Source: Candidatus Omnitrophota bacterium | GTDB lineage: Bacteria; Omnitrophota; Gorgyraeia; JABMRN01; RBG-13-46-9 | Reading direction: 5' to 3' | NCBI GenBank assembly: GCA_013203315.1 | Contig: JABMQJ010000001.1 | Span: 49,179-113,178, forward strand | Length of the DNA: 64,000 nt | In this document: positions 16,819 to 33,693 of the stretch, in pieces | Position numbering within the stretch: the first letter of the stretch is position 1 | Layout: every line of letters starts with the position of its first letter | Made by a program: the position numbers and the translations under genes | Notes under the pieces: generated by a model | Databases searched by the model: none | The model's input: only the letters and a program-made list of their open reading frames with translations | What the model was told of the DNA's origin: nothing

Positions 16819-17058
16819 TTACTCTACTATGTCTCCCAGGAGCGACTCAACCTTTATGCCTTGCCCGGTAAGATACTTGATGCCTTTTTCGAGATTTTCC
16901 TTCGTGCCCTCCAATTCGAGCGTTACCTCACCTACTGTTTCGGTTACCTTTGCCCTCCTGATGTTGGGAATTACATCGTATTTTTTGGCCATTGTAAAAA
17001 TAGCAGGCTCTTTAATGAGTTTCTGCGGGAATATTAAATGCACCATTTTCTTTGGCAT
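16819..17058 (-). CDS. Stand-alone NIL-domain protein
   Basis: EPAI....KYDVIPNIRRA..GEVTLELEG pattern. Confidence 0.8.
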   Translation of the reverse strand: MPKKMVHLIFPQKLIKEPAIFTMAKKYDVIPNIRRAKVTETVGEVTLELEGTKENLEKGIKYLTGQGIKVESLLGDIVE

Positions 17059-17060
17059 AA

Positions 17061-17876
17061 TTACTCCTCCTTTTTCTTTTTTATACTGCAGAACTGTTCA
17101 TAATCTATTAGCTTAGTTACCGTAGGTTTTTCGCCGCAAATCGGGCACTTTGGGTCTTTTGGGACCTTTACCTGGCGAAAGCTGGAGTCCAGCGCATTAA
17201 ACACAAGGAGTTTTCCGGCTAAAAGATCACCTATGTTTAAAATGTATTTAAGGACCTCGTTTGCCTGGATTACACCGATTGCACCTGCAACTGCGCCGAG
17301 GATCCCTGCTTCCTGACAGCTTGGCACAAACCCCGGAGGCGGCGGTTCGGGAAATAGGCATCTGTAGCATGCGCTTTTGCCCGGTAAAATTGTTATCGCC
17401 TGGCCGTCAAACCTGAATATTCCTCCGTGGGAGAGTGGTTTCTTTTCCAGAACGCATGCATCGTTTACCAAATATCGCGTAGGAAAATTGTCCGATCCGT
17501 CTACAACGATGTCGTATTCTTTTATAACATCGGTTATATTCTTTGACGTGAGACGCATGTTTAACGCTTTTACTTTGACATCCGGATTTATGGCGTTTAA
17601 TCTTTGTTTGGCAGATTCAACTTTTGCGACACCTACGGTATTCGTATCGTGCACAATTTGTCTCTGCAAATTGTTGAGCTCTACTTTATCCGAATCTACG
17701 ATACCGATCGTGCCGATACCGGCTGAGGCCAGATATAAAGCGCATGGCGAGCCTAAGCCACCTGCGCCTATTATGAGAACTTTGCCTCCGAGAAGTTTTT
17801 CCTGGCCCTTTCCGCCGACTCTAGGCAATATAATTTGCCTTGAATAACGTTCTATCTGATCTTCTTTTAGGCTCAT
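17061..17876 (-). CDS. moeB: MoeB/ThiF/HcyF-type sulfur-carrier adenylyltransferase (no rhodanese domain)
   Basis: RYSRQ, GAGGLG, NNLQRQ, CYRC, SCQEAG, CPIC. Confidence 0.9.
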
Positions 17877-18154
17877 CGACTTCCACCTGCTATTGCCGGA
17901 ATTATCGAAACTTCGTCCCCGTCTTTTAAGGGTGTGGCGTCCTGTTTTAAGAAACGCACATCCTCCTCATTTACGTAGATATTTATAAATCTGCGAACCT
18001 TACCTTGGTCGTCACAGATCCTCTCTTTTATCCCGGGAAAATCTTTTTCCAGGTTCTCGATTAACTCCCCTACATTTTTACCGTTTACCTCTACTTCGGC
18101 CCTGTTGCCGGTAAGTTTTTGTAACGGTGTCGGAACTCTTACTTTTACTGCCAT
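17873..18154 (-). CDS. MoaD/CysO-type ubiquitin-like sulfur carrier ending GG-SR
   Basis: Start moved to ATG 18154 ([11 protein letters not shown]); [20 protein letters not shown]. Confidence 0.9.
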
Positions 18155-18155
18155 C

Positions 18156-19394
18156 TTAAACCCCCAGTCGTTTATTTTTAGCTTTTTCAAACGCTTCCAA
18201 ACTCGGTTTTATCTTGAGCGGTTTTCCTATTTTTTCCGCAACAGCTTCCTGAGTTTTTAAACCATTGCCTGTTATACACACGACAATTGATTCATTCTTC
18301 GGAATTTTTCCCTGTTCTATCAGTTTCTTTGTAACGCCAAGCGTTACGCCTCCTGCGGTTTCGGTAAATACGCCTTCGGTCTTGGCCAAAAGCTTAATCG
18401 CTTCTACTATTTCCTCGTCCGATACGTCTTCCGCAAAACCACCCGATTCCTTTACAGTTCCGACAGCATATATGCCGTCAGCAGGATTCCCGATGGCTAA
18501 AGACTTCGCAATGGTATTTGGCTTAATAGGCTTTATGATATCCGAACCTTCTTTTATCGCGGTAACTATCGGCGCGCATCCTGTGGCCTGGGCAGCATAA
18601 ATTTTTGTGTCGACTTTATCAATCAGCCCCAGTTTCTTAAATTCGTGCAAGCCCTTCCATATTTTCGTGATAAGTGAGCCGCCCGCGCAAGGAACTACGA
18701 TGTGCTTGGGCGCTTTCCATCCCAGCTGTTCGGCAATTTCATATCCGTATGTTTTCGACCCTTCGGCGTAATACGGCCTTATGTTTATGTTAACAAAGGC
18801 CCATTTATATTTTGCTGCGACTTCCGAACAAAGCCTGTTAACCTGGTCATAATTCCCTTCGACAGCCACCAAATTTGGATCATATATAAGTGTCCCTATA
18901 ACCTTTCCTTTTTCAAGGTCAGCGGGTATAAATATATATCTTTCCAGGTTAGCTATGGCGGACTGCGCTGCTACTGAATTCGCAAGATTACCCGTCGAAG
19001 CGCATGCAACAGTTTTGAAACCGAATTCCTTCGCCTTTGATAGCGCTACCGCGACCACTCTATCTTTGAAGGAAAGTGTCGGGTGGTTTACAGAGTCGTC
19101 TTTTATGTAGAGTTCTTTCACGCCCAGCACCTTTTCAAGATTCCTGGCTCTTATTAAAGGTGTGTATCCTGAATTTAGACCGTCTGTAGGGTCTTTGTCT
19201 ATGGGCATAAGTTCTCTATAACGCCATAGGTTCTTGGGTCTTGACTCTATTTCCTTCCTGGTCAATATCTTCTTTATCCATTCGTAATCATAGTCCACCT
19301 CTAGCGGCCCGAAACAGTATTCGCATACATATATGGGGTCCTTCGGATAAGCCCTGCCGCATTCCCTGCACTTTAATCCTTTTACATAACTCAT
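18156..19394 (-). CDS. Threonine synthase-like PLP enzyme (possibly O-phosphohomoserine sulfhydrylase)
   Basis: Zn ribbon [29 protein letters not shown]; start ATG 19394. Confidence 0.85.
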
Positions 19395-19398
19395 TTTG

Positions 19399-19638
19399 TC
19401 ACCTCGATTTCCTGACAATAAGATTCCAATACCCGTTTTTTTCTTCAACTTTTAAAATTTCGTGCCCTTCTTCCTTAGTGCTGGCCGTAACGTTCTTAAT
19501 CGGCTCACCGTCGTCAAGGAGAACCTCCAGTATCTTGCCCGCTTGCATCGATTCAAGTTTTAATTTCGTTTTTACAAAATTCATCGGGCAAGGAACGCCC
19601 TTTAAGTCTAATATCTGATCTATTTTTATATCACTCAT
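19399..19638 (-). CDS. tusA: TusA/SirA family sulfurtransferase
   Basis: LDLKGVPCPMNFVKTK motif. Confidence 0.85.
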   Translation of the reverse strand: MSDIKIDQILDLKGVPCPMNFVKTKLKLESMQAGKILEVLLDDGEPIKNVTASTKEEGHEILKVEEKNGYWNLIVRKSR

Positions 19639-20525
19639 AAAATCTTGTCCTTTGCTTTCTTAAGCCCTGTCCTGTCCAGCGCTTCTCCAAATCGCTCACC
19701 CTTGTTTGCTATTTCTTTATAGTACTCGACTGATTTTTCTATGATTTTGGGGATCTTTTTTTCCTCTACAAACTCTGCTATTTCAGTTCCGAATCGAGGA
19801 AAACGTCCCACCTTACCGCCTATGTAAACCTTAAAACCGACTTTCTTTGTTTTCCAGGCGCTTACCGGGCATACCCTCACACAATCCCCTTCGAAGTAAC
19901 AATTTTCTTTTCTGTACACGGGTTTTTTGTCTTTATCCATTACAATAGCCGGTTGCCCTTTTCCCCTTGCGCAGACTTTTTCACAAACCTTTGCGCAAAG
20001 CGTACAGTGTATGCACGCATCAAGATCTACTTCGGGTTCGCCCTGCGCCTGGAATCCCAAATCGTTCTCCTGCGGCTTGGCGCAAGAATTCATGCAGCCT
20101 GTAATTGCTACTTTGAATTTTTTGGGAACCTCTTTGCCAAACGCGACTTTATCAAGTTTCATAGCCAACTTTTCAGCATCAACAAAACCAAATCTACATA
20201 CGCTCGACCCCGGACAGGCAATGAGGTTTCTGGATCTCGGGCCGCATGCGCCTTTTAATATTCCGAACTTCTTCATATCTTTGAGTAAACTATTTATATT
20301 TTTTATGTGTATCCACGGAATTTCTATCCCCTGCCGGGTCGAGACGTGGACATAATCTTTGCCGTATTTTTTGGCAAGTATGGCGTATTTTTTTAGTTTT
20401 TCCGCTTTTAAATGCCCGCCGGGAATTCTTGTACGCAGGATAAAATAATCCTTTTGTATTTGTTTCAAGACCCCGCCGGTTCTCAGATCCAAAAGTTCTG
20501 TTTCATTGTATTTTTTTAATGCCAT
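19635..20525 (-). CDS. Small siroheme-[4Fe-4S] sulfite reductase with ferredoxin insert
   Basis: STRQG, CPGSSVC (Cx5C), GCMNSC (Cx3C), CIHCTLC..C, GGKVGR. Confidence 0.85.
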   Translation of the reverse strand: MALKKYNETELLDLRTGGVLKQIQKDYFILRTRIPGGHLKAEKLKKYAILAKKYGKDYVHVSTRQGIEIPWIHIKNINSLLKDMKKFGILKGACGPRSRNLIACPGSSVCRFGFVDAEKLAMKLDKVAFGKEVPKKFKVAITGCMNSCAKPQENDLGFQAQGEPEVDLDACIHCTLCAKVCEKVCARGKGQPAIVMDKDKKPVYRKENCYFEGDCVRVCPVSAWKTKKVGFKVYIGGKVGRFPRFGTEIAEFVEEKKIPKIIEKSVEYYKEIANKGERFGEALDRTGLKKAKDKIL

Positions 20526-20537
20526 CTCTTTGTCTCC

Positions 20538-21680
20538 TTAGGCCCCAAAATACCTTTCCATCGAAAAGTATCTCTCACCCGTATCGGGTAAAATTGTAAC
20601 TACAAGTTTATCTTTTCCCAACTTTTTAGCGACCTCAAGCGCCGCCCAGACTGCCGCACCTGCGGATATCCCCACAAACAATCCTTCGAGTGTGGCAAGC
20701 TTTCTTGAGGTTGTAAAAGCATCGTCGTCATTTACCTGTATTATTTCATCAATCACTTTTTTATTAAGGACATCCGGAATAAATCCGGCGCCGATACCCT
20801 GTATTTTATGTGGACCGGGCTTCCCGCCGGATAATACTGGGCTCGCCTTTGGTTCAACAGCAATAATTTTAACTTCCGGATATTCTTTTTTTAATGCTTC
20901 TCCTACACCTGTTATGGTCCCGCCCGTCCCAACGCCGGAAACAAAGGCGTCTATCTTTTTATCAACTGCCTCAAGTATTTCTTGAGCGGTTGTATCTCTA
21001 TGAGCCTGCGGGTTTGCCTTATTTTTAAACTGCTGAGGCATAAAGCTATTCGGTGTTTTCTTAAGAAGCTGTTCGGCTTTTTTTATGGAGCCCTGCATCC
21101 CCTCTGCGCCCGGGGTAAGAACTACTTGTGCGCCAAAAGACTTAAGTATGTAAATTCTTTCGAGACTCATGGTTTCAGGCATTGTAAGAATGCATTTATA
21201 ACCCTTTACAGCAGATACCATGGCAAGGCCAATTCCGGTATTCCCGCTTGTCGGTTCAATTATGGTTGCACCTTTTTTCAGGAGGCCCTTACGCTCGGCG
21301 TCTTCTACCATCGAAAGGCATATCCTGTCTTTAACACTGCCGCCGGGATTATAAAATTCAAGTTTTCCAAAAATATCCGCCATGCCGGGCTCGACAATAT
21401 TATTCAGCTTGACCATGGGGGTGTTGCCTATCAATTCTAATATATTGCGCGCCGCTTTTCGGCCGCCTTTTTCACAGCCGCCGCCCATGAAATATACAAA
21501 TTCCAGCTTGTCATTGGTTTTAAGCGAGGTGTCGCTGTATTTACCTCTCTCTATAATCTTCTCGTTTAATTCGACCGTAACGACTTCCGGCTTTATATTC
21601 TTGTCCGCCAGGAGCTCGGCAACGCTCATGTCATCGCCGATTTCTTCCTTTTTGCCATTTAAATAGATTGTCGTCATCAT
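20538..21680 (-). CDS. cysK: ThiS/HcyS-like sulfur carrier fused to cysteine synthase A
   Basis: aa 1-68 ThiS fold ending EFVYFMGGG, then in-frame CysK with SVKDR, EPTSGNTG, GVGTGGT, HKIQGIG. Confidence 0.9.
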   Translation of the reverse strand: MMTTIYLNGKKEEIGDDMSVAELLADKNIKPEVVTVELNEKIIERGKYSDTSLKTNDKLEFVYFMGGGCEKGGRKAARNILELIGNTPMVKLNNIVEPGMADIFGKLEFYNPGGSVKDRICLSMVEDAERKGLLKKGATIIEPTSGNTGIGLAMVSAVKGYKCILTMPETMSLERIYILKSFGAQVVLTPGAEGMQGSIKKAEQLLKKTPNSFMPQQFKNKANPQAHRDTTAQEILEAVDKKIDAFVSGVGTGGTITGVGEALKKEYPEVKIIAVEPKASPVLSGGKPGPHKIQGIGAGFIPDVLNKKVIDEIIQVNDDDAFTTSRKLATLEGLFVGISAGAAVWAALEVAKKLGKDKLVVTILPDTGERYFSMERYFGA

Positions 21681-21692
21681 CCCGATACCTCC

Positions 21693-22976
21693 TTATTTTT
21701 TTAAAACCTCACTGATTACTTCCAAAGTTTTCTCTATGTCCCCCTTGCTGTGCGCAAGGGATAAGAAATTCGCTTCAAATCCGGACGGAGAAAAATATAT
21801 ACCTTGTTTCAATAAGCCGTGAAAAAATCTTTTAAATGAATCCGTATCTTGTTTTTTCGCGGTCCTGTAGTCTACGACAGCCTCATTTGTAAAAAATACG
21901 CTAAACATTGAACCGACGCGGTTTACTCTAAGGGCTATTTTGTCCGCAGCGGCTATTTTTTCTATTCCCTCACATAATTCTTCGGTTTTGTTTTTCAGTT
22001 CTGCGTAAGGATTTTTTTCTTTCAATATATTTAAAGTTGTGATGCCAGCTTTTACGGCTATGGGGTTACCTGATAATGTCCCCGCCTGGTAAACACCACC
22101 CTGGGGCGCCAGAAGCGATATAACATCTTTCCTGCCGCCAAAAGCGCCTACCGGCAGTCCGCCTCCTATGATCTTTCCGAGGCAGGTTATATCCGGTATT
22201 ATACCAAAAAGTGCCTGTGCGCCACCATATAAATACCGAAATCCGGTAATAACCTCATCAAATATTAAAAGTGCACCATGTTGATCAGCTATTTTTCTTA
22301 ACCCTTTAAGGAAACCCGCCTCCGGAGGAATGACGCCACAATTTCCGGCTACAGGTTCAACAATTATGGCGGCCAAATCTTCTTTGTACTTTTCGGCTAT
22401 TTTTTCCGTTTCCTCGATATCATTGTAAGGCGCTACAATCGTGTGCTTGGTAAAGTCTTTCGGCACTCCTAGACTATCGGGCATGCTAAGCGTAGCAGCA
22501 CCGGATCCTGATTTTACCAAAAGATAGTCCGCGTGGCCGTGATATGCGCCTTCGAATTTTATAATTTTGTTTCTTTTGGTATAGCCCCTTGCAAGTCTTA
22601 TAGCACTCATTACCGCTTCTGTGCCGGAGCTGGTAAGCCTCACCTGTTCGACCGAAGGGATCGCTTCAACAATAAGTCGCGCCAACTCTGTCTCTTTTGT
22701 AGTGGCCGCACCGAAGCTCGTCCCATCTTTTACGGCTTTTTCAAGCGCCTTTGTTACTTCCGGATACGCGTGGCCGAGTATCATAGTGCCCCATGAAAGG
22801 CAATAGTCGATGAATTCGCCGCCGCACTCACCGTAAAGCTTTGAGCCGCTGCCGCGCTTTACGAACACGGGATAGCCGCCGACAGCCTTGAAAGATCTTA
22901 CGGGGCTATTTACGCCACCCGGGATGAATCTCTTGGCATCATTTAATAAATCTTTCGCGATTCCTACCCCAGCCAT
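21693..22976 (-). CDS. hemL: Glutamate-1-semialdehyde 2,1-aminomutase
   Basis: IPGGVNSPVR, DEVITGFR, LGKIIGGG, AGTLSGNP. Confidence 0.95.
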   Translation of the reverse strand: MAGVGIAKDLLNDAKRFIPGGVNSPVRSFKAVGGYPVFVKRGSGSKLYGECGGEFIDYCLSWGTMILGHAYPEVTKALEKAVKDGTSFGAATTKETELARLIVEAIPSVEQVRLTSSGTEAVMSAIRLARGYTKRNKIIKFEGAYHGHADYLLVKSGSGAATLSMPDSLGVPKDFTKHTIVAPYNDIEETEKIAEKYKEDLAAIIVEPVAGNCGVIPPEAGFLKGLRKIADQHGALLIFDEVITGFRYLYGGAQALFGIIPDITCLGKIIGGGLPVGAFGGRKDVISLLAPQGGVYQAGTLSGNPIAVKAGITTLNILKEKNPYAELKNKTEELCEGIEKIAAADKIALRVNRVGSMFSVFFTNEAVVDYRTAKKQDTDSFKRFFHGLLKQGIYFSPSGFEANFLSLAHSKGDIEKTLEVISEVLKK

Positions 22977-23887
22977 TTTATAACCTCTTTTCCGAAATAA
23001 GTTATTATACGATCCGCACCTGCTCTTTTCATAGAAGTTAGCGCCTCCAGCACAAGTTCTTTTTCCTTGGCACTGTCTCCATCGGCAAGTTTTTTAATCA
23101 TGGTATATTCTCCGCTTACGCTGAAAGCGGCTATTGGTGTCTTAAATTTTTTCTTTGCTTTGTAAAGGATGTCCAGGTACGCAAGTGCGGGTTTAACCAT
23201 GACGAGATCCGCACCTTCTTTAATATCCTCTTCTATTTTCGCTAAACCCCGATCGGTGTTTCTGGGGTCCAGTTGATAACTCGTTCTATCCCCAAACTTG
23301 GGCGACGAATTAAGCGCCTCTCTAAACGGCCCATAGAAATTAGACGCGTACTTGGCTGAATAAGCCAGTATCTTTGTGGATTTGAAGCCTTCGCAGTCTA
23401 AGGCGTGTCTTATCACCGCGACTTGGCCGTCCATCACAGCAGAAGGCGCAACAAAATCCGCCCCTGCCCTAGCGTGTGAGACGGCAATTTTAGCCAGCGT
23501 CTCCAATGTAGCTTTTTTATCTACGGCCAGCTTCGCTTTTTGCTTTCCTTTTTTTAATATCCTGCAATGCCCGTGAGAGGTATAAGCGCAAAGGCAAACA
23601 TCCGTAACAACTTTTAAGTTTTTGAATTCTTTCTTTATTGCCCTTATGGCTTTCTGGATGAGGCCGAATTCATGATAAGCGGCAGAAGCTGTATCGTTTT
23701 TTGTTTTGGACACGCCAAAAAGAAGCACCTCTTCGATGCCCCGGGCCGATCTTATGTCCTTGATCAAGTTATCGACAGAAAAGTGATAAATACCGGGCAT
23801 CGAACGGATAGGCCGCTTCACATCCTTACCACCAACAACAAAATAAGGAGTAATTATGTCTTTTTTCTTTAGTTTAAAAGTCCGCAT
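22964..23887 (-). CDS. hemB: Porphobilinogen synthase (Zn-type, divergent)
   Basis: DVCLCAYTSHGHC, YSAKY, MVKP; likely start ATG 23887. Confidence 0.9.
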   Translation of the reverse strand: MRTFKLKKKDIITPYFVVGGKDVKRPIRSMPGIYHFSVDNLIKDIRSARGIEEVLLFGVSKTKNDTASAAYHEFGLIQKAIRAIKKEFKNLKVVTDVCLCAYTSHGHCRILKKGKQKAKLAVDKKATLETLAKIAVSHARAGADFVAPSAVMDGQVAVIRHALDCEGFKSTKILAYSAKYASNFYGPFREALNSSPKFGDRTSYQLDPRNTDRGLAKIEEDIKEGADLVMVKPALAYLDILYKAKKKFKTPIAAFSVSGEYTMIKKLADGDSAKEKELVLEALTSMKRAGADRIITYFGKEVIKWLG

Positions 23888-25272
23888 CGTTTCGCCTCTT
23901 TTAGTGTCACGCGACCTATGCATCTAATCTTTACGGCCTTGGGCACTTTCTTATATCTTTTTTTGAAACTTCTCACCGTTGACGGGCTCGTAAACATTAT
24001 CTCGTCGAAATTCGTAATATCAAGATCCGGAAGATTATCCGGTATTGTATTTTTGTAAGCTACGCATGGAAAAATCGTGGCGCCTTCTTTTTTTAATCCC
24101 TCGGTCAGGCCCTTGTCAGCAATATCCGAACGCGGTAACAAAATATTCTTTTTGATAAGATTTATTTTTTTCAGTTCCGCAAGCAACCCCTTCGAAGATT
24201 CGTCCTTCGGGACAAGATCCGGAAATACGCCGAACTCTTTTAATTTTTCGGCAGTAGAGTTTCCGATAGCGGCAACCTTGATACCCCCCATTTTACGGGT
24301 GTCGAGCCTGAGTTTAAACAGCCGCTCGAAGAAGTAGAGCGCGGCGTAACGGCTCGTAAAGACAATCCAATCAAAAGCTTTAAGTTTTCTTATAAGCTCG
24401 TCAAGCTTTGTATAATCTTTTAGAGGTTTTATTTCAATAAGCGGAAGATGAAAAATTAAACCCTTCTCATAAGGCCTGTGATTTGAGAGTCCCGTGAAAA
24501 GAATTTTCCTGGATTTTTTAAACCAGCCAAATTCTTTTTCTTTCCTCACCACTTCGCCGATTATAATAATTGCGGGCGCTTTTATATTTTCTTTTTTGAC
24601 AATAGCGCCTATATACTTTAATCTGCCGGTTACTGTCCTTTGGTTTATTTTCGAAACGTTGGAAATAACGGCAACGCTTGTGTTTTTGTTTTTGCCTTTT
24701 GAGATAAGCGTATCCGCGATCCGGGAAATGCTTCCTACTGCCATGTATAAAACAATCGTTCCACCTTTTGCAAGCTCATCCCAATTGATAGAGCTTTTTT
24801 TCTTTTTAGGGTCCTCATGCCCGGTAACAAATGCAACGCTTGAAGCGAAACCCTTTGACGTAAGCGGAATACCACTATAACAGGCTGCCGCTTGAGCTGC
24901 GGTAACTCCGGGAATCACGGAAAACTCTATTCCTTTCTTGATTAAACCCCTGATTTCTTCAGTGGCCCTGCCAAAGACAAAAGGATCTCCGTTTTTTAGC
25001 CTCATTACATTTTTACCCTTTTGGGCCCTATCTACAAGCAGCTTGTTTATCAAATTCTGCCTTTTGGAAAATCCGTCGCTATGACGGACCCTGTCCAGTT
25101 TATCGGCGCATACGAGTTCTGAGGCGGGGTTTGCGTATTGCAAAACCCTCTTATCTACAAGCCGGTCGTATACAATAACATCGGCCTGCTTAAGAGCCTC
25201 TAGGCCCTTGACCGTGATCAAATCCGGCTCGCCGGGCCCTGCGCCTGCTAAAAAAACTTTACCCTTTTTCAT
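23869..25272 (-). CDS. cobA: Uroporphyrinogen-III C-methyltransferase / synthase fusion (CobA-HemD)
   Basis: GAGPG, RLKNGDPFVFGR, VTGHE; C-terminal VFTS, AAIG, FTSPSTV. Confidence 0.9.
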   Translation of the reverse strand: MKKGKVFLAGAGPGEPDLITVKGLEALKQADVIVYDRLVDKRVLQYANPASELVCADKLDRVRHSDGFSKRQNLINKLLVDRAQKGKNVMRLKNGDPFVFGRATEEIRGLIKKGIEFSVIPGVTAAQAAACYSGIPLTSKGFASSVAFVTGHEDPKKKKSSINWDELAKGGTIVLYMAVGSISRIADTLISKGKNKNTSVAVISNVSKINQRTVTGRLKYIGAIVKKENIKAPAIIIIGEVVRKEKEFGWFKKSRKILFTGLSNHRPYEKGLIFHLPLIEIKPLKDYTKLDELIRKLKAFDWIVFTSRYAALYFFERLFKLRLDTRKMGGIKVAAIGNSTAEKLKEFGVFPDLVPKDESSKGLLAELKKINLIKKNILLPRSDIADKGLTEGLKKEGATIFPCVAYKNTIPDNLPDLDITNFDEIMFTSPSTVRSFKKRYKKVPKAVKIRCIGRVTLKEAKRCGLLN

Positions 25273-25949
25273 ATTACAGCCGTTTCTCTTGAATCTATTT
25301 TTGAGAGAATTTCTATTAAGTCAGAATCCTCCGCCCTTGCGATAACTGCAAGACGCCCCTGCAAGGGGTGCGGCTCAAGTATATGTGGCGGTAAAATTTC
25401 GGTTATTCTTTCTTCTAATCCCAGACGAATCAAGCCTGCAGCGGCTATTACTATGGCATTTAAGCTTGTTGTTTCCAATATCTTAAGTCTTTCCTGGATA
25501 TTACCCCGGATATCTACAAGCTCAAAATCCGGCCTGAATTTCTTCAATGCCTCTTTACGGCGAATGCTGCTTGTCCCGATCCGCGCGCCAAATGGTAGAC
25601 TATCTAACTTTAATCCATCTCTTGAAACTAAAACATCGTACGGATCGATCGATTCCGTAAGCGCTGCTATGTGAAACCCCTCCGCTAAAACAAAAGGCAC
25701 GTCTTTTGCGCTATGCACGGCAAAATCAATTTCACCTAAAAGAAGCGCCTGATCTATCTCTTTTGTAAAGAAGTCCTCACCTTCTATATACGATATGGGT
25801 GTGAACTTATCTTTGTCGCCGCAGGTATCTATACCCACTATTTCGGCTTTAAGGGACGTTCCTGCGTCATTTAAAGCATTTAAAATTTCTTCTACCTGCT
25901 TTAACGCGAGAGGACTAGTTCTGGTTCCGATTTTGTAAGTTTTCGCCAT
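25269..25949 (-). CDS. hemC: Hydroxymethylbilane synthase, short form lacking domain 3
   Basis: IGTRTSPLA, FTKEI, AVHSAKD, GTSSIRR, IRGN; only 226 aa. Confidence 0.85.
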   Translation of the reverse strand: MAKTYKIGTRTSPLALKQVEEILNALNDAGTSLKAEIVGIDTCGDKDKFTPISYIEGEDFFTKEIDQALLLGEIDFAVHSAKDVPFVLAEGFHIAALTESIDPYDVLVSRDGLKLDSLPFGARIGTSSIRRKEALKKFRPDFELVDIRGNIQERLKILETTSLNAIVIAAAGLIRLGLEERITEILPPHILEPHPLQGRLAVIARAEDSDLIEILSKIDSRETAVI

Positions 25950-26932
25950 ACTGTACCTGCTTCTATATCTATAATTTGTCTTACTTTTTTTGCGATTTCT
26001 GTTTTCTTTTCTATATTTTCTTTAATCACAGTATCCAAGTCTTCCAGGCCGAATAAATCTACGTTTTCGATTCTTTTTACCTCGGGATCAACGTCCCTTG
26101 GTAAGGCAAGATCTATTATTAATAGTTTCCCGTTTTGCTTCTCTTTGAAGGTTTCTTTCTTGATTATAAAATGCGGGCTGGCGGTAGCCGTTATAACGAT
26201 ATCCGCCTTACCCAGTGATTCTCTTAGGTTATCAAATCTTACCGCCTGCGCCCCGATCTGGGAAGCAAACTCTCGTGCCCTGGAAAAGGTCCTATTTGAT
26301 ACGAAAACTACAGAGGCCCTTTCTTTTTCCAGGTATTTCAAAACAAGTTCCGTAACCTTCCCTACCCCTATGATCAAAATTATTTTATTTTCCAGCCGGC
26401 CTATTTTTTTCTTTATAAAGTCTATGGCCACGCTTCCCACCGATACTTTCCCCTCGGATATCTTCGTCGTCGCATGCATGTCCTTGGCAAAGAAGAACGC
26501 AGAATTAAATACGCCGTCTAATAGCTTATCCGTAAAACCAATGCTTTGACTTTTTAAAAAGGAGGCCCTAACCTGGCCCAGCACTTGTGTTTCGCCGAGT
26601 ATAAGAGAATCAGTTCCACTCGCAACTGAGAACAAATGCTTTAACGCTCCCTCGTCCGCATACCTATATAGGTAAGGCGAGATACTTTCTTTATCGATTT
26701 GGTGATACCGTGAAATAAAGTCTTCCAATTCCCATAGCCCCTTATCTTTATTGTCTGTGCTTGCATAAATCTCTGTTCTATTACACGTCGAGATTATAAT
26801 AGCTCCGTTTAAACCGGTGTTTTCCTTTAAAAAAGAGATCTCATCCCTTACCCGCTTTTTGGAAAAAGCGATTCTTTCCCTGAACTCTACCGGACTATAT
26901 TTATGGTTTGTTCCTACTAATATGAGATTCAC
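25901..26932 (-). CDS. hemA: Glutamyl-tRNA reductase, short form
   Basis: STCNRTE, GETQVLGQ, DLALPRD; 343 aa. Confidence 0.9.
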   Translation of the reverse strand: MNLILVGTNHKYSPVEFRERIAFSKKRVRDEISFLKENTGLNGAIIISTCNRTEIYASTDNKDKGLWELEDFISRYHQIDKESISPYLYRYADEGALKHLFSVASGTDSLILGETQVLGQVRASFLKSQSIGFTDKLLDGVFNSAFFFAKDMHATTKISEGKVSVGSVAIDFIKKKIGRLENKIILIIGVGKVTELVLKYLEKERASVVFVSNRTFSRAREFASQIGAQAVRFDNLRESLGKADIVITATASPHFIIKKETFKEKQNGKLLIIDLALPRDVDPEVKRIENVDLFGLEDLDTVIKENIEKKTEIAKKVRQIIDIEAGTVWRKLTKSEPELVLSR

Positions 26933-27372
26933 TTTATTTCTATTTCCTCTTCGGTGATCTTGCCTTCTACGATCTTAAATGATCTTACGCTTGGACTTGC
27001 CTCATCCTTTATTGAAACTATCACGTATGACGAGTCAGGATAGTAGGCCAGCTTCACATCATGCGACGAAGGAAAGGCTTCTGTTTCTAAATGTGAGTGG
27101 TATATGCCAACCATTTCCAGGCCCAGGGTTCTTATCTCTTTGGTGACTTTAAGCTGTTCTTTAGGGTCCATTAAAAATGTCTGTCCGCTGTTGTCCGCAT
27201 TGGCCATAAGATATATCTTCGTTACTTTTGATATCCGCCGAAGCCTACCTGCTGCGAATTTCTCCTCTGGCGTAGGCGGACCGGCAAGTATACCGCAAGC
27301 CTCGCTGGGGGCCTCTTTCTTTGAATACTCCACTAAATCATCTATATGCTTCCGGCTTAAAGAAATCATCAC
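26929..27372 (-). CDS. JAMM/MPN+ (M67; Mec/HcyD-like) metalloprotease
   Basis: EACG..YHSH-x7-S-x2-D; carries an in-frame palindromic insertion. Confidence 0.9.
   Translation of the reverse strand: MMISLSRKHIDDLVEYSKKEAPSEACGILAGPPTPEEKFAAGRLRRISKVTKIYLMANADNSGQTFLMDPKEQLKVTKEIRTLGLEMVGIYHSHLETEAFPSSHDVKLAYYPDSSYVIVSIKDEASPSVRSFKIVEGKITEEEIEIK
27234..27280. repeat. REP-like palindrome inside the JAMM coding sequence
   Basis: Arms TCCGCCGAAGCC / GGCGTAGGCGGA, 10/12 complementary. Confidence 0.65.
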
Positions 27373-27380
27373 AGGGCTCC

Positions 27381-28346
27381 TTAAATCTTGTCAAGTACTG
27401 CTGTCAGTAAAAATGATATGATAAGCGCAATAATCGGTGTCACGATCCAGGTCATATATGTTTTTCTTGTTACAGGGTTAGTAAATGTTGTCTTATGTCC
27501 GTTTTTTAGACCTCCTACGGCAAACAGACAAGCCACTTTGATCATTACAAAGGACTGCGGCACACCTAAGAGAGAGGCCACTATCATAAGCGTTCCGGTA
27601 ACAAGGCATACAATCGTCGCCGATAAAACGCCTAACGGCACTATTTTTTCGCCCGCGGTCTTAAGCGAGCCATGGAATACAAGGCTTCCTAACCCAAAAA
27701 TAGGCGCGATTAAAATAAGTCCGAGCGTTGTACTTAAAATTCCGGCCCCGGAAAGCGGACCCACGACATTGGCTACATTATTCGCGCCCACTGAAAAGGC
27801 GTTATAGCAACTTGCAATTATCACGAATAGTTTCAACCTATCGGTGTGATTAACCAGTTTTTCATAGATCCAGAAATTATTATTTTTCGGCGGATATACG
27901 ACTTTTCCCAAAAGATATGTTAAGAAATAGCCTAAAACCGGCAAAAGTACCCAAAAAGGCACCAGGTATAATAAGGTTTTGGTGTATACACTCCTGTAAT
28001 ACAGACCCACACCTAATATAGATGCGACCGTAACCAGGCTCGTGGACTGTGGCACATGCAATCTATTCGCCACAAATAAACTGAGCGTCGCTGAAATCAA
28101 AATCACGAGGATAACGTTAATCCCCATAAGCTCATGCGGAATGATCTTATTGCCCAAAGTCTCTGAAACAGGCTTACCTATAAGAACAGCCCCTAGAAAG
28201 ACAAATATAGCAAAAAGAATCTGCGCCCGAGCTCTGGTGATAATTTTGCCACCGTGCGCGGCGGCAAAAGAAGCGCCAAAGTTGCTTCCGCCCATATTAA
28301 GAGCGAAAAGAATAGCCAGTATTGCTAAAACGATATAGTGTGCCAA
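27381..28346 (-). CDS. PiT-family anion permease (CysP-like sulfate permease)
   Basis: NMGGSN, PQSTS, GANNVAN signatures; located in a sulfur operon. Confidence 0.8.
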   Translation of the reverse strand: MAHYIVLAILAILFALNMGGSNFGASFAAAHGGKIITRARAQILFAIFVFLGAVLIGKPVSETLGNKIIPHELMGINVILVILISATLSLFVANRLHVPQSTSLVTVASILGVGLYYRSVYTKTLLYLVPFWVLLPVLGYFLTYLLGKVVYPPKNNNFWIYEKLVNHTDRLKLFVIIASCYNAFSVGANNVANVVGPLSGAGILSTTLGLILIAPIFGLGSLVFHGSLKTAGEKIVPLGVLSATIVCLVTGTLMIVASLLGVPQSFVMIKVACLFAVGGLKNGHKTTFTNPVTRKTYMTWIVTPIIALIISFLLTAVLDKI

Positions 28347-28367: not shown

Positions 28368-29090
28368 TTAGATGCCGTCGCCGCCAATATTTTTAAGGGG
28401 TCTGGTGTGAATACCGCATTCACCGCCGCATTTGCTCGTGCCGATCCAGCGGCCCGCGCGCTCATCGTCTTCAACTGTAATTTTTGTGCAGGGCGCGCAG
28501 CCCAATGAACGGTACCCTAACCCATAGAGAGGATTTACTTTTACTTCGTTAAGCGCCAGATACTCCCAGACCTCTCTTTCCTTCCAGATAAGAATCGGAT
28601 TTAATTTTACAAGGCCCTTGTCCCGCTCCTCTACCTCTTTAAAGTCTGTACGAGTTCTGCCTTCGGTGCAACGCAGGCCCGTAATCCAGCATGTTACCTT
28701 CATCTCTTCTACGGCTTTTCTTGTGGGCTCTACCTTTAATATATCGCAGCACTTATCAGGTTTAGTTTCGTAAAGCTTATCCGGTATTTCAACGTCATTT
28801 TTGTAAACCTTGAGCTCCGGGAACCTGGCAACTTCTTCATTCATAAATTTAATGGTTGCCTTTGGTTTATAGCGCGTAGTTACTATAAAGCCTCTTATCT
28901 TGGGGTTTACTTTTCTTGCAAGATCCCAAATAGCAACGGAATCTTTCCCCAGGCTATTGGCCACCACAAGCCCATCACCGTATTTCTTATACGCTTCTTC
29001 GATAAGCGCAAGCGACCTTTCAACTTTTTCTTTAAAATTCAGCGTGTCGACTAGTTTTTTTAGATCATCGTTGTTCTTCAATATGCTCAC
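28368..29090 (-). CDS. cysH: APS reductase (Fe-S type CysH)
   Basis: SLGKDS, CCDILKVEP, SLGCAPCT, ERAGRW, ECGIH. Confidence 0.9.
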   Translation of the reverse strand: MSILKNNDDLKKLVDTLNFKEKVERSLALIEEAYKKYGDGLVVANSLGKDSVAIWDLARKVNPKIRGFIVTTRYKPKATIKFMNEEVARFPELKVYKNDVEIPDKLYETKPDKCCDILKVEPTRKAVEEMKVTCWITGLRCTEGRTRTDFKEVEERDKGLVKLNPILIWKEREVWEYLALNEVKVNPLYGLGYRSLGCAPCTKITVEDDERAGRWIGTSKCGGECGIHTRPLKNIGGDGI

Positions 29091-29117: not shown

Positions 29118-29540
29118 TTATATTTGGTAAGCAAATGCTCCCCTTTTTCCTTTGGACCTCTCCGCTATATCTTCAAAAGTGACTTTATCCAGTATTTTGG
29201 CTATAGCGCCATCGACCTCATCCCAAATCGCCGCAAATACAGATTCTCTTTTTGCAACTGATTTGGACGCAGTTAAAAGAGGGCCTCCTATCCGGCGCAT
29301 CACTTCGCCCAGCGTTATTTCATTCGGAGGCTTGGCCAGGTTATACCCGCCGTCCTTACCTCTTATGCTCGAGACCTGACCCATTCTTTTGAGTTGAATT
29401 AGAATTTGTACCAAGTATCTAATAGGTATACTCTGTCTATCGGATATAGTGTGAATTTGTAGCGGCGCATCCCCCGGCCAATGCAGTGATAGCTCCAAAA
29501 GCGCCTTACATGCATAGTCACATCTTGCTGAAATTCTCAT
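29118..29540 (-). CDS. Rrf2 family regulator (CymR-like, lacks the IscR 3-Cys motif)
   Basis: YLVQIL, RGKDGGY, ITLGEV. Confidence 0.9.
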   Translation of the reverse strand: MRISARCDYACKALLELSLHWPGDAPLQIHTISDRQSIPIRYLVQILIQLKRMGQVSSIRGKDGGYNLAKPPNEITLGEVMRRIGGPLLTASKSVAKRESVFAAIWDEVDGAIAKILDKVTFEDIAERSKGKRGAFAYQI

Positions 29541-31267: not shown

Positions 31268-32416
31268 CTAGCTATCTATAATTTTTACAATCTTGTCGAT
31301 GTCAATGTGACGCTTTACCATGTTAACGATTATGCCAATCTTGGCCTTGTCTTCGGGTTTTATTTTTATTTTCATGGTGTGTATCTTGGCCGCGATCGAA
31401 TACGTATCATGGTCGGAAAGAAGAGTCGGTATTTTAGCTTTCTCAAGGAGCGCTAAAACTTTGGGAGGAGGAACTATGCCCCCTGATAAGACAAGGCCTG
31501 ATATTTTACAGGGCCTACGCAGCTTCCCGTTTTGGAGATCAATTATGGCCCGGATCATGTCCATTCTATCTGAGGGCGTTATGACCAATGAATTATTCAC
31601 CATGTAATTAAGCGCTTCCCCAACTTCCATGGCGCCGATTAATATTTTATCTACCACGTTTTCCAAATAATCTTTTCCGCAAAGGAGTTTTATTTTTACT
31701 TCCTCGAATATTTCTCTTATAGTAGGAAGGTCAAGCCTTTTCTGGTAAGGCATCACGCCTAAAACAGGGAGCTTTTTCTTGGCGAGCCCCATCCGCACGT
31801 ATTTACTTATTTTACTGAATTTATCAGATAACACCTTGTTGACTACTACGCCCGCAAGCTTGACGTCCTCTTTGTCAAAAAGTGCCCTGTTTAACATGAA
31901 TTCGTCTATGGGCCTCCCTATCCCGCCGGGGCCAAGAAGGATAACCTTCGAATTAAGAAGCTTGGCGACAGTAGCGTTGGAAAGATCAAAAACCGACCCT
32001 ACACCGGCGTGCCCAGTACCTTCGATTATTACAAGGTCCTTATCCTTGGCGACTCTATTGAAAGAATCGACTATATCTTTCGCGTAGTTACCCTTAGAAG
32101 TACCCTCGATATATCTTTCCGTGAAGCCTTTTTCAACCGCAACCGGTGATAAATCTTTTATGCTTAAGTTTTTCGATATGCCGAAAATTCTCTCTATAAG
32201 AACCGAGTCCTCATCAACCTTGAAGCCCTGTTCCATGAGATAGCGCTGGCCGATGGGTTTAATAAAACCTATGTTTTTATACTTTTTGAGAAGTGCTGCT
32301 ATCAGGCCGAGAGAGAAAGTGGTTTTTCCGGCATTTTGCCCGGTTGCTGATATAAAGATGCGTCGTGTCTTGCTTATTTTTTTAAACGTAATGCCCAAAG
32401 CTATTTTTTCTCCCAT
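31268..32416 (-). CDS. Pta N-terminal-like protein (BioD-like P-loop + DRTGG), no catalytic Pta domain
   Basis: NAGKT, FIKPIG, IEGTGH, IGAM..ITPSDR. Confidence 0.8.
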   Translation of the reverse strand: MGEKIALGITFKKISKTRRIFISATGQNAGKTTFSLGLIAALLKKYKNIGFIKPIGQRYLMEQGFKVDEDSVLIERIFGISKNLSIKDLSPVAVEKGFTERYIEGTSKGNYAKDIVDSFNRVAKDKDLVIIEGTGHAGVGSVFDLSNATVAKLLNSKVILLGPGGIGRPIDEFMLNRALFDKEDVKLAGVVVNKVLSDKFSKISKYVRMGLAKKKLPVLGVMPYQKRLDLPTIREIFEEVKIKLLCGKDYLENVVDKILIGAMEVGEALNYMVNNSLVITPSDRMDMIRAIIDLQNGKLRRPCKISGLVLSGGIVPPPKVLALLEKAKIPTLLSDHDTYSIAAKIHTMKIKIKPEDKAKIGIIVNMVKRHIDIDKIVKIIDS

Positions 32417-33693
32417 CTTAAGAGCTCAATCACTTTAGCGAGGGTAGAACCCTTGTCTATTTCATGCCTTAGCCTATTTTCCTGTTCTAAAATACTCATC
32501 GCGCGGTTTGCAATTTCGGTTACCTTTTCCTTAGGGATACGAACTACTCCGTCGTCATCGCCAAGTATCCAGTCACCATTACATACTCTCGTACCGCCGA
32601 TGTTTACAGGAACGCCTATTTCCCCGAAACCCTTGGGTTCACCTGCGGTGGGTGTTACAAGTTTAGAAAACACGGGAAACTTTAATTTGCGTATTTCCGC
32701 GGTATCGCGGGTTGCGCCGTCTATGACTACGCCCGCTATTTTGCGTTGGATCGCTCCGTGCGTAGCCAACTCTCCCCATACGGCCGGCCCTACACCGCCG
32801 GCGTCTATTACTATGACCTGGCCCTTTTCCGCTCTGTCAATTGCCTCGACGGTTTTCGCCCAGTCACCGGGATAGGTGCGCACCGTGAGCGCGGGACCTG
32901 CCATTTTTACCCCCTGCAGAACCGGATAGATTCCTTTTAAATCGCCTGACCTATGCATCGCGTCTGAAAGGTTAGAAGTTGACACAAGCTTCAGGGCTTT
33001 ACCGACATCTTCTGTCGAAACTCTTTTGAAAAGCTCGGTTTTTATTATTTTTCCCGTAGTGATTGCCTTTTTTATGCGTTTTGCAGCAAGAGTGGGATCT
33101 TTGGCTTTATTTATTGCTCCGCCGACTATTACGATTTTTGCTCCTGCCTTTACGGCGCGGGCAGCGGTTTCGGAATTTATTCCGCCTGCGCAAGCGACGG
33201 GAATATTTACTGCCTTAACGATCCTGCAAAGCCGCAGGAACGGATCCTTGCCACGCATCTGTTCGTCAATGGCAATATGCACTCCTATATAATCTACGCC
33301 TAACTTTTCCATGTCTTTTGCGCGTTTTTCTAATTTATTCTCACTAATTTCTATTAAATCGGCTTCAATTTTAACGCCGTAATTTCTTCCTGCTTCCACG
33401 CATTCGGTTATTGTGCTATCAGAGGCTGCTGCCAAAACACAAACTATGTTTGCGCCGGCTTTCGCGGCTGCTTCTGTTTCGATTCTTCCGACATCCATGA
33501 TTTTCATGTCGGCCACGATAGTTACCGTGGGAAATTTTTTCCTTAGCTCCCTTACGGCGTCCAGGCCCTCACTCTTTATAAGAGGCGTTCCTGCCTCAAG
33601 CCAATCAACCCCACCACGCACCGCCTCTTCGGCAACTTTTAGCGCGCGCTTAAGATTCAGAAAATCTAATGCTAACTGTAATTTTGGTTTCAT
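32401..33693 (-). CDS. hxlA: 3-hexulose-6-phosphate synthase fused to an RraA/MenG-like domain
   Basis: LQLALD, EAGTPLIK, ADMKIMD; C-terminal NLSDAM, AVWGEL, DGATRD, GDDDGV. Confidence 0.85.
   Translation of the reverse strand: MKPKLQLALDFLNLKRALKVAEEAVRGGVDWLEAGTPLIKSEGLDAVRELRKKFPTVTIVADMKIMDVGRIETEAAAKAGANIVCVLAAASDSTITECVEAGRNYGVKIEADLIEISENKLEKRAKDMEKLGVDYIGVHIAIDEQMRGKDPFLRLCRIVKAVNIPVACAGGINSETAARAVKAGAKIVIVGGAINKAKDPTLAAKRIKKAITTGKIIKTELFKRVSTEDVGKALKLVSTSNLSDAMHRSGDLKGIYPVLQGVKMAGPALTVRTYPGDWAKTVEAIDRAEKGQVIVIDAGGVGPAVWGELATHGAIQRKIAGVVIDGATRDTAEIRKLKFPVFSKLVTPTAGEPKGFGEIGVPVNIGGTRVCNGDWILGDDDGVVRIPKEKVTEIANRAMSILEQENRLRHEIDKGSTLAKVIELLRWEKK

Follow-up and report, generated by a model that had tools for sequence, protein, structure and literature searches.

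A ThiS-cysteine synthase fusion in an Omnitrophota sulfate-assimilation operon, a probable precursor cut by a JAMM protease

The closest precedents for a small sulfur carrier made in one chain with an enzyme are the MoaD-MoaE fusions DR2607 and MoaX, which are cut after Gly-Gly. DR2607 of Deinococcus radiodurans is cut by the JAMM protease DR0402 (DRJAMM), leaving a C-terminal Gly (PMC8832034, available in part), and MoaX of Mycobacterium tuberculosis works only if it is cut at Gly82 (PMC4326299, available in part). Here we describe a ThiS-type carrier fused to a complete cysteine synthase (CysK) in an uncultured freshwater Omnitrophota bacterium. The gene lies in a stretch of 64,000 nucleotides (nt), hereafter the window (assembly GCA_013203315.1, contig JABMQJ010000001.1, positions 49,179 to 113,178). 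As in the available accounts of MoaD-MoaE, the carrier is N-terminal to the enzyme and Gly-Gly stands at the junction. In those accounts a cut after Gly is required for activity, and for Deinococcus the protease is a JAMM. The partner there is the molybdopterin synthase MoaE, whereas here it is a cysteine synthase dependent on pyridoxal phosphate (PLP), and the cut is a proposal.

The M. tuberculosis Mec+/CysO/CysM/MoeZ system likewise has a JAMM, a small Gly-Gly carrier and a cysteine synthase as neighbors. In that pathway the carrier, once activated by an E1, ends up in a carrier-cysteine adduct, from which the JAMM sets cysteine free. However, carrier and synthase are separate proteins there and one chain in the window; CysM belongs to a distinct, O-phosphoserine-specific subfamily, whereas the window enzyme scores as CysK; and, unlike the M. 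tuberculosis system, the window has an E1 without a rhodanese domain and a TusA gene instead. Krishnamoorthy and Begley reportedly described in 2011 a Wolinella succinogenes pathway of HcyS-Ala, HcyD (a JAMM), HcyF (an E1), Sir and MetY. It resembles the window in its sulfite reductase, its E1 without rhodanese, its JAMM and a carrier extension reportedly removed by that JAMM, but the extension there is one alanine and the sulfhydrylase is MetY, whereas here the extension is a whole enzyme, CysK. In the ubiquitin-ribosomal protein precursors of eukaryotes, a Gly-Gly beta-grasp protein heads a chain that continues into a protein unrelated to it, and a specific protease releases it; those proteases are of another type, and the role is in signaling rather than sulfur transfer.

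The operon type has been known since 2006, when Iyer, Burroughs and Aravind defined operon class 4e by a carrier, a JAB protein, an E1 without rhodanese, SirA, PAPS (3'-phosphoadenosine 5'-phosphosulfate) reductase and sulfite reductase (PMC1779556, available in part). Fusions in the same survey include ThiS-ThiG, MoaD-MoaE and a sulfite reductase that carries ThiS C-terminally; in its available part, no carrier-cysteine synthase fusion stands among them (PMC1779556). A literature search that covered subscription journals thinly and did not extend to supplements found no description of a ThiS/CysO-cysteine synthase fusion. The new element is thus the pairing of carrier and cysteine synthase, while the carrier-enzyme polyprotein strategy is already known. 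The first-pass annotation of the window, made from the letters alone, had overstated the degree of novelty, since carrier-enzyme fusions cut after Gly-Gly had already been demonstrated in DR2607 and MoaX.

A carrier and a cysteine synthase in one reading frame

The fusion occupies positions 20538..21680, stop included, on the minus strand, as do all window features given below. It encodes 380 residues from an ATG with a strong AGGAGG-type ribosome site just 5' of it. Residues 1-68 (21477..21680, exactly the interval first assigned to the carrier) form a ThiS-type domain ending in FMGGG. This domain belongs to the ThiS/MoaD beta-grasp family by a full-length match, with residues 5-68 covering positions 1-64 of 64 of the NCBIfam thiS profile TIGR01683 (68.8 bits; cut-off, 37.45) and residues 10-68 matching Pfam ThiS (PF02597; 45.6 bits; cut-off, 22.5). 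An 11-residue linker, CEKGGRKAARN (residues 69-79; 21444..21476), leads into a CysK of the O-acetylserine sulfhydrylase A type (residues 80-380 and stop; 20538..21443; TIGR01139), of which residues 81-366 match Pfam PALP with 260.9 bits. The frame runs open through FMGGG-CEKGGRKAARN-ILELIGNTP with no stop and no frameshift. No in-frame ATG or GTG was found between G68 and the IGNTP strand of CysK; the sole in-frame start-type codon at the junction is a TTG (Leu83), and it lacks a preceding purine-rich site. The initial description of a ThiS/HcyS-like carrier continuing into a complete CysK with no separate start was thus borne out by Pfam, by NCBIfam and by the reading frame.

Reads across the junction had been named as a check, with a stop or frameshift in the linker as the outcome that would refute the idea. 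Logan contigs of runs X1 and X2 across 20400-21800, and of run X4 across 21372-21627, showed 0 differences from the window; these three runs come from one study, and X1 and X2 are possibly the source samples. Runs X5-X7 contributed only small shares; X5, at lower likeness, reached 7 of 30 bins, and no conclusion was drawn from these runs. No RNA data set was listed for this stretch. Because the junction-spanning contigs agree and the same in-frame architecture recurs in all of the 120 best database matches, which come from many assemblies, the join is not an assembly error.

These 120 best relatives, drawn from 5.8 billion clustered proteins, all combine ThiS with PALP, at 71-77% identity apart from one identical sequence; where named, they are called just "cysteine synthase A" of Candidatus Omnitrophota. 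The fusion is therefore not a singleton, which had been one way for the idea to fail. Another, decay of the Gly-Gly motif in fused orthologues, was not seen either, with MGGG kept in 119 of 120. The nearest solved carrier chain, 2k5p/3cwi, likewise has FLYFMGGG. The linker, by comparison, is variable: 86 distinct linkers of 6-20 residues were counted among the 110 relatives with a parsable junction. The residue right after GGG in these 110 is S in 34, M in 23, E in 17, Q in 9, C in 8, L in 7, G in 5 and another residue in 7. With Cys in this position in only 8 of 110, Cys69 of the window, which mimics a carrier-Cys adduct, is not conserved.

Carriers of this family end in Gly-Gly with a free carboxylate. 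In the primary product of the fusion gene GGG is internal, followed by 312 residues, and a free carrier C terminus therefore requires cleavage. An AlphaFold2 model of the whole fusion, built with 34 fused sequences, gave two confident domains (mean predicted local distance difference test [pLDDT], 80.7; predicted template modeling score, 0.72), whereas residues 63-74 and 76-86 stayed under a pLDDT of 50. On this model the carrier tail and linker are probably flexible and exposed. The carrier was not confidently placed on CysK, a result that says nothing on docking.

Linkage to a JAMM protease and the split forms of the gene

The operon's JAMM, to which the cleavage had been ascribed at the outset, was identified as a JAMM/MPN+ metalloprotease gene at 26929..27372 (PF14464, Prok-JAB; 78.1 bits). 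It is the sole Prok-JAB match in the 1.5-Mb genome and lies 5.2 kb upstream of the fusion on the same strand. The intact E...HxH...S..D signature of the family is thus linked to a carrier and a synthase; residues E24, H92, S93, H94, S102 and D105 are invariant in 14 orthologues.

Co-occurrence of fusion and JAMM was examined in 201 evenly sampled genomes of the phylum; because relatives are not independent, counts are given without a test. The fusion was found in 9 of the 201, in frames of 379-394 residues. All 9 carry a JAMM above the Pfam cut-off, upstream on the same contig and strand, versus 77 of 201 sampled genomes overall. The distance from JAMM to fusion is 5.3-5.9 kb in 7 of the 9, with heme genes between them as in the window; in the other two (G085 and G047) the JAMM is directly adjacent upstream, at 59 nt and about 200 nt.

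The JAMM was modeled together with Zn and the first 95 residues of the fusion. This complex reached an interface score (ipSAE) of 0.72, versus 0.01 for the best of three controls; in calibration, 58 of 80 solved complexes attained that mark, as did 2 of 110 mismatched pairs. Three runs agreed in at least 80% of contacts, with a partner pLDDT of 76. Carrier residues 62-71 (VYFMGGGCEK) contact JAMM residues 24, 26, 92, 94 and 102-105 in the model, so that the GGG-linker tail is predicted to run across the catalytic residues. The model supports binding of the carrier by the JAMM; it does not demonstrate it.

Split forms of the gene were found among close kin. In three genomes (G063, G035 and G091) JAMM, thiS and cysK are contiguous and unfused, the thiS stop overlapping the cysK start (ATGA), and the carriers bear 2-28 extra residues past GGG. 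The 28-residue extension, in G063 (L104:about 1690-1776), contains a perfect GC-rich palindrome of ~30 nt, apparently a small hairpin element that was inserted between the two genes. In genome G105 a 60-nt insert that carries a ribosome site separates thiS from cysK. CysK there begins with MPFSDRIA, a sequence that many fused forms have as their "linker"; those fused forms are thus GGG attached directly to the former initiator Met. In the CysK tree, one clade with 100/100 support, separate from the clade of the window's gene, consists of two fused and three split genes that interleave, although its inner forks are only moderately supported (92/89 and 86/86). Because fused and split genes interleave and their junction structures differ, at least two independent joins or breaks between thiS and cysK have occurred. 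The two states seem functionally interchangeable, as expected for a fusion that processing turns into this same pair of proteins.

Outside Omnitrophota, residues 1-130 were searched against species-representative genomes. Among the 80 loci returned, only L016, an Omnitrophica metagenome-assembled genome (MAG), is fused. An apparent match to residues 5-130 in a Bacillota MAG (L025) proved split, with thiS ending GGGR and cysK starting 5 nt on; the upstream matches in L040, L074 and L091 were chance extensions, with no ThiS domain seen in their frames. At the Bacillota locus, sulfite reductase, TusA, ThiS and CysK follow one another, and an open reading frame that reads as M20-type amidohydrolase-like (L025:9178-10395) lies between cysK and E1. 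In an all-against-all library of representatives, the carrier part was aligned among the best 150 only in P0121 (a full-length 50%-identity cluster) and a fragment, P0183. The long two-stretch matches P0122-P0128 and P0130 were double PALP or PALP-CysE proteins, not ThiS fusions; the Pfam scan covered 10 of these 150 representatives.

ThiS-type domains are fused to other enzymes in the phylum as well. In genome G125 (L178:344-2984) one frame of 479 residues joins this type of carrier (FLYFMGGG) to a MetY-type Cys/Met PLP enzyme, with the junction FMGGG-SGLRF, and overlapping ThiF (E1) and JAB genes come next; the locus corresponds to a fused form of exactly the gene set known from W. succinogenes. 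The same two genes, carrier and MetY-type enzyme, are separate in genome G195, where the carrier ends GGG-SLNGSV. Twice, then, with CysK and with a MetY-type enzyme, the fusion partner is the PLP enzyme that inserts sulfur.

A third kind of frame carries ThiS with an intact GGG (..HFVGGG) at the N terminus of 672-871 residues, in 29 of the 201 genomes (L110, L117, L119 and 26 further places). The partner was DNA topoisomerase I in both of the two frames tested with Pfam. The topoisomerase-fused ThiS is the only ThiS-family domain in three of five genomes tested (G017, G027 and G029), where full ThiG is present, and 26 of the 29 genomes have a JAMM above the cut-off. The window's genome has no such fusion, and a literature search with thin coverage of subscription journals found none described.

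Proposed processing and competing explanations

Four points are established: how the fusion is built, that this build is conserved, that the gene is linked to those of JAMM and E1, and that the genome has no free ThiS. Genome-wide (1.5 Mb, 97% complete) there are two ThiS-family domains, both in this operon (the fusion and a MoaD-like carrier), one E1, one JAMM and one CysK; the single PF00899 gene, in the same operon, provides a cognate E1. No ThiG was found in the genome. One weak match of 29 bits proved to be a protein with OMPdecase and RraA domains and was rejected; it is the 430-residue product of 32401-33693, in which an orotidine monophosphate (OMP)-decarboxylase/HUMPS-family domain is joined to an RraA-like domain. 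Thiazole is presumably made by a Thi4-type enzyme encoded beside the operon; with this enzyme and no ThiG, the fused carrier is therefore not a thiamine ThiS.

On balance, we favor a precursor reading, in which the product is a polyprotein and a cut after GGG releases a carrier like CysO or HcyS. The single operon JAMM would cut after GGG, yielding carrier and CysK in equal amounts, and would also trim SR from the second, MoaD-like carrier. The single E1 would adenylate the freed Gly carboxylate, and sulfur from the adjacent sulfite reductase, TusA or both would convert it to a thiocarboxylate. CysK would then use this thiocarboxylate on the aminoacrylate made from O-acetylserine, CysE being present, to give a carrier-Cys adduct. 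Hydrolysis of the adduct by the same JAMM would release cysteine, as in the Mec+/CysO/CysM and HcyD/HcyS/MetY pathways. The second carrier and a threonine synthase (ThrC)-like enzyme would make homocysteine likewise. We infer every catalytic step of this scheme, the cut included; use of the thiocarboxylate as sulfur donor and hydrolysis of the adduct by the JAMM are proposed from gene linkage.

Several observations weigh against this scheme. The cleavage comes from comparison and a model. In 7 of the 9 fused genomes ~5 kb with five heme genes separates the JAMM from the fusion, and no JAMM was seen in the stretch examined around the Bacillota locus L025. One relative, P0061, the single exception to MGGG, has MCGG. 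In 5 of 10 fused orthologue junctions an in-frame ATG or TTG follows a Shine-Dalgarno (SD)-like run of Gly codons, and free CysK might arise without cleavage in those five; the window is not among them, and this route does not apply to it. The passing complex model may reflect likeness to solved JAMM/ubiquitin-like protein complexes, and its runs, unlike the calibration, used their own alignments and a riding Zn. The enzyme itself scores as a canonical CysK rather than a CysM of the M. tuberculosis type. With CysE and a neighboring sulfite reductase, free sulfide could suffice, and the carrier may not be the donor of CysK.

The assignment to CysK draws on several comparisons. The domain scored 468.6 bits with the cysK equivalog model TIGR01139 (cut-off, 350.95) and fell below the cut-offs of the cysM models (291.5 versus 394.2 and 283.3 versus 413), so it lacks the CysM-subfamily character of Mec+/CysO/CysM-type synthesis. 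The nearest PDB chains are the CysK enzymes 2egu, 8srt and 2q3b (M. tuberculosis CysK1), and the best 60 PDB matches include no CysM entry. S115, K117, D118, R119 and T144-G149 (TSGNTG) are invariant in the 34 fused sequences; we take S115-R119 and TSGNTG to be the PLP-lysine motif and the asparagine (substrate) loop. This domain is the only CysK match in the genome, which also encodes a bona fide CysE on contig C28 (L126:1423-2148; TIGR01172; 240 bits; cut-off, 210.65). Thiocarboxylate use by a canonical CysK, in a genome with CysE and sulfite reductase, is the weakest step we infer.

That step is where the strongest competing explanation departs. The JAMM would free the carrier, but CysK would use free sulfide and O-acetylserine; the fusion would only secure co-expression and stoichiometry, and the thiocarboxylate would feed another acceptor or buffer reduced sulfur. 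Besides the canonical CysK score, the presence of CysE and the adjacent sulfite reductase gene, the fact that the phylum also fuses ThiS-type domains to topoisomerase I, without sulfur chemistry, fits this account; fusion alone is therefore no proof of a carrier/acceptor pair. However, each case examined has a carrier of this clade beside or fused to a sulfhydrylase (CysK or MetY-like), and the order JAMM, carrier, synthase is the same as that of the M. tuberculosis genes. No other thiocarboxylate-using enzyme was found, ThiG having been searched for and MoaE not. We regard this account as unlikely, though a serious competitor.

Permanent attachment is less probable still. ThiS would then be a lasting module of CysK, docking it to E1, TusA or sulfite reductase or serving auto-regulation, with the MoaD-like protein alone as the working carrier. 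The operon does hold this second, free carrier, cleavage is so far a deduction, and other beta-grasp domains fused to enzymes, such as a ubiquitin-like domain on ThiF, have been suggested to be distinct in role from the free carrier (PMC1779556, available in part). A permanent domain, however, would not need an invariant GGG before a freely varying linker. Split and fused forms interconvert among close kin with the carrier unchanged, those members of the clade that stand alone are full carriers whose extensions can be trimmed, and a JAMM accompanies 9 of 9 fused genes. The first-pass annotation had left JAMM cleavage and a docking or regulatory module side by side; JAMM co-occurrence (9/9), retention of MGGG (119/120), fused/split interconversion and the complex model favor cleavage, itself a deduction, while the module gained no specific support.

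Lastly, a sequencing error or an inner start, with CysK made separately and the fusion a by-product, draws on the Met directly after GGG in 23 of 110 relatives and the ATG or TTG behind SD-like Gly-codon runs at 5 of 10 junctions, but it is hardly credible and for the window largely refuted, since the window has no such start, contigs of three runs differ nowhere from it over the junction, all 120 relatives keep the frame open, and an inner start would leave the carrier C terminus still blocked.

Operon context, partners of CysK and significance

The fusion lies within a co-directional array, with gene overlaps or gaps of no more than 12 nt, in the order Rrf2, CysH, CysP-like permease, JAMM, five heme genes, ThiS-CysK, sulfite reductase, TusA, ThrC-like enzyme, MoaD-like carrier, E1 and NIL. 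This array is a sulfate-assimilation operon. An Rrf2-family regulator (29118..29540) stands at its head, its best equivalog model being CymR (84 bits, below the cut-off of 195). It is followed by the PAPS/adenosine 5'-phosphosulfate (APS) reductase CysH (28368..29090) and the CysP-like sulfate permease (27381..28346; 237.6 bits, below the cut-off of 400). Between JAMM and fusion lie hemA, hemC, cobA-hemD, hemB and hemL (21693..26932), tetrapyrrole/siroheme precursor genes that would supply siroheme precursors to the sulfite reductase. Downstream of the fusion come a small sulfite-reductase-like protein with NIR_SIR and 4Fe-4S domains (19635..20525; Pfam and NCBIfam) and a TusA/SirA-family sulfurtransferase (19399..19638; Pfam). 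By consensus alone, the best promoter-like site of the minus strand falls at 29635-29607 and the strongest terminator-like hairpin at 15887-15847; such matches are compatible with a single long unit that reaches from Rrf2 to Thi4, but they do not count as evidence for it.

The remaining genes suggest a second carrier route. A threonine-synthase-like PLP enzyme (18156..19448; Pfam and NCBIfam) is a MetM-like candidate homocysteine synthase, and the second carrier (17873..18190; start codon uncertain) is MoaD/SAMP1-like and ends AGG-SR. Their reading frames overlap (17873-19448), and the AGG-SR end also needs trimming. The E1-type adenylyltransferase (17061..17876; PF00899), MoeB/ThiF/UbaA-like, without a rhodanese domain and the only one in the genome, and a stand-alone NIL-domain protein (16819..17058; Pfam) then follow. 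A homocysteine route in Streptomyces uses MetO, MetM, Mec and MoeZ (10.1101/2024.10.14.618325, available in part), and the ThrC-like enzyme and second carrier would fit, by analogy, such a MetM/MetO thiocarboxylate route.

C-terminal isoleucine tails recur among the proteins around CysK. CysH of the window bears a 12-residue tail after ECGIH, ending GDGI (28371-28406), and 13 of 28 close CysH orthologues end G-x-G-I, including those of all seven fused genomes of the window's clade. CysE has GDGI as its conserved C-terminal tetrapeptide and plugs the active site of CysK with the last residue, Ile (10.1101/2025.03.26.645513, available in part), which makes the tail of CysH a possible CysK-docking tail. 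The Rrf2 protein at the operon head ends AYQI and the CysE of the genome NENI; Rrf2 proteins 5' of stand-alone cysK in L014 and L015 end YEYSI. CymR of Staphylococcus aureus binds CysK via a C-terminal peptide (10.1101/2024.09.19.614015, available in part). The first-pass annotation had suggested that processing could also be regulatory, CymR-type regulators sensing cysteine through CysK; a regulator with CymR as its best, sub-cut-off model does stand at the operon head. These tails, seen at the level of sequence, suggest several competitors for the CysK active site, and CysK may be a hub for three Ile-tailed partners, CysE, Rrf2 and CysH.

A wider and rather doubtful idea joins these observations. 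ThiS-type domains of Omnitrophota might be general JAMM-processed polyprotein leaders (of CysK, MetY-like enzymes and topoisomerase I, the GGG always intact), like eukaryotic ubiquitin-fusion genes, and the cut might be regulated, timing the binding of CysK to CysE, the CymR-like Rrf2 protein and CysH. If true, a single active site would link sulfate reduction, cysteine synthesis and gene control.

These genes bear no annotation but "cysteine synthase A," which hides the carrier, so that pathway tools miss it and thiS appears to be absent from such genomes. If the cut is real, PLP sulfhydrylases would be, besides molybdopterin synthase, a second enzyme class made as a sulfur-carrier polyprotein, with the protease encoded in the same operon. 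The system would then be a clean bacterial model of ubiquitin-precursor-style processing, and protein-thiocarboxylate cysteine synthesis would extend to canonical CysK.

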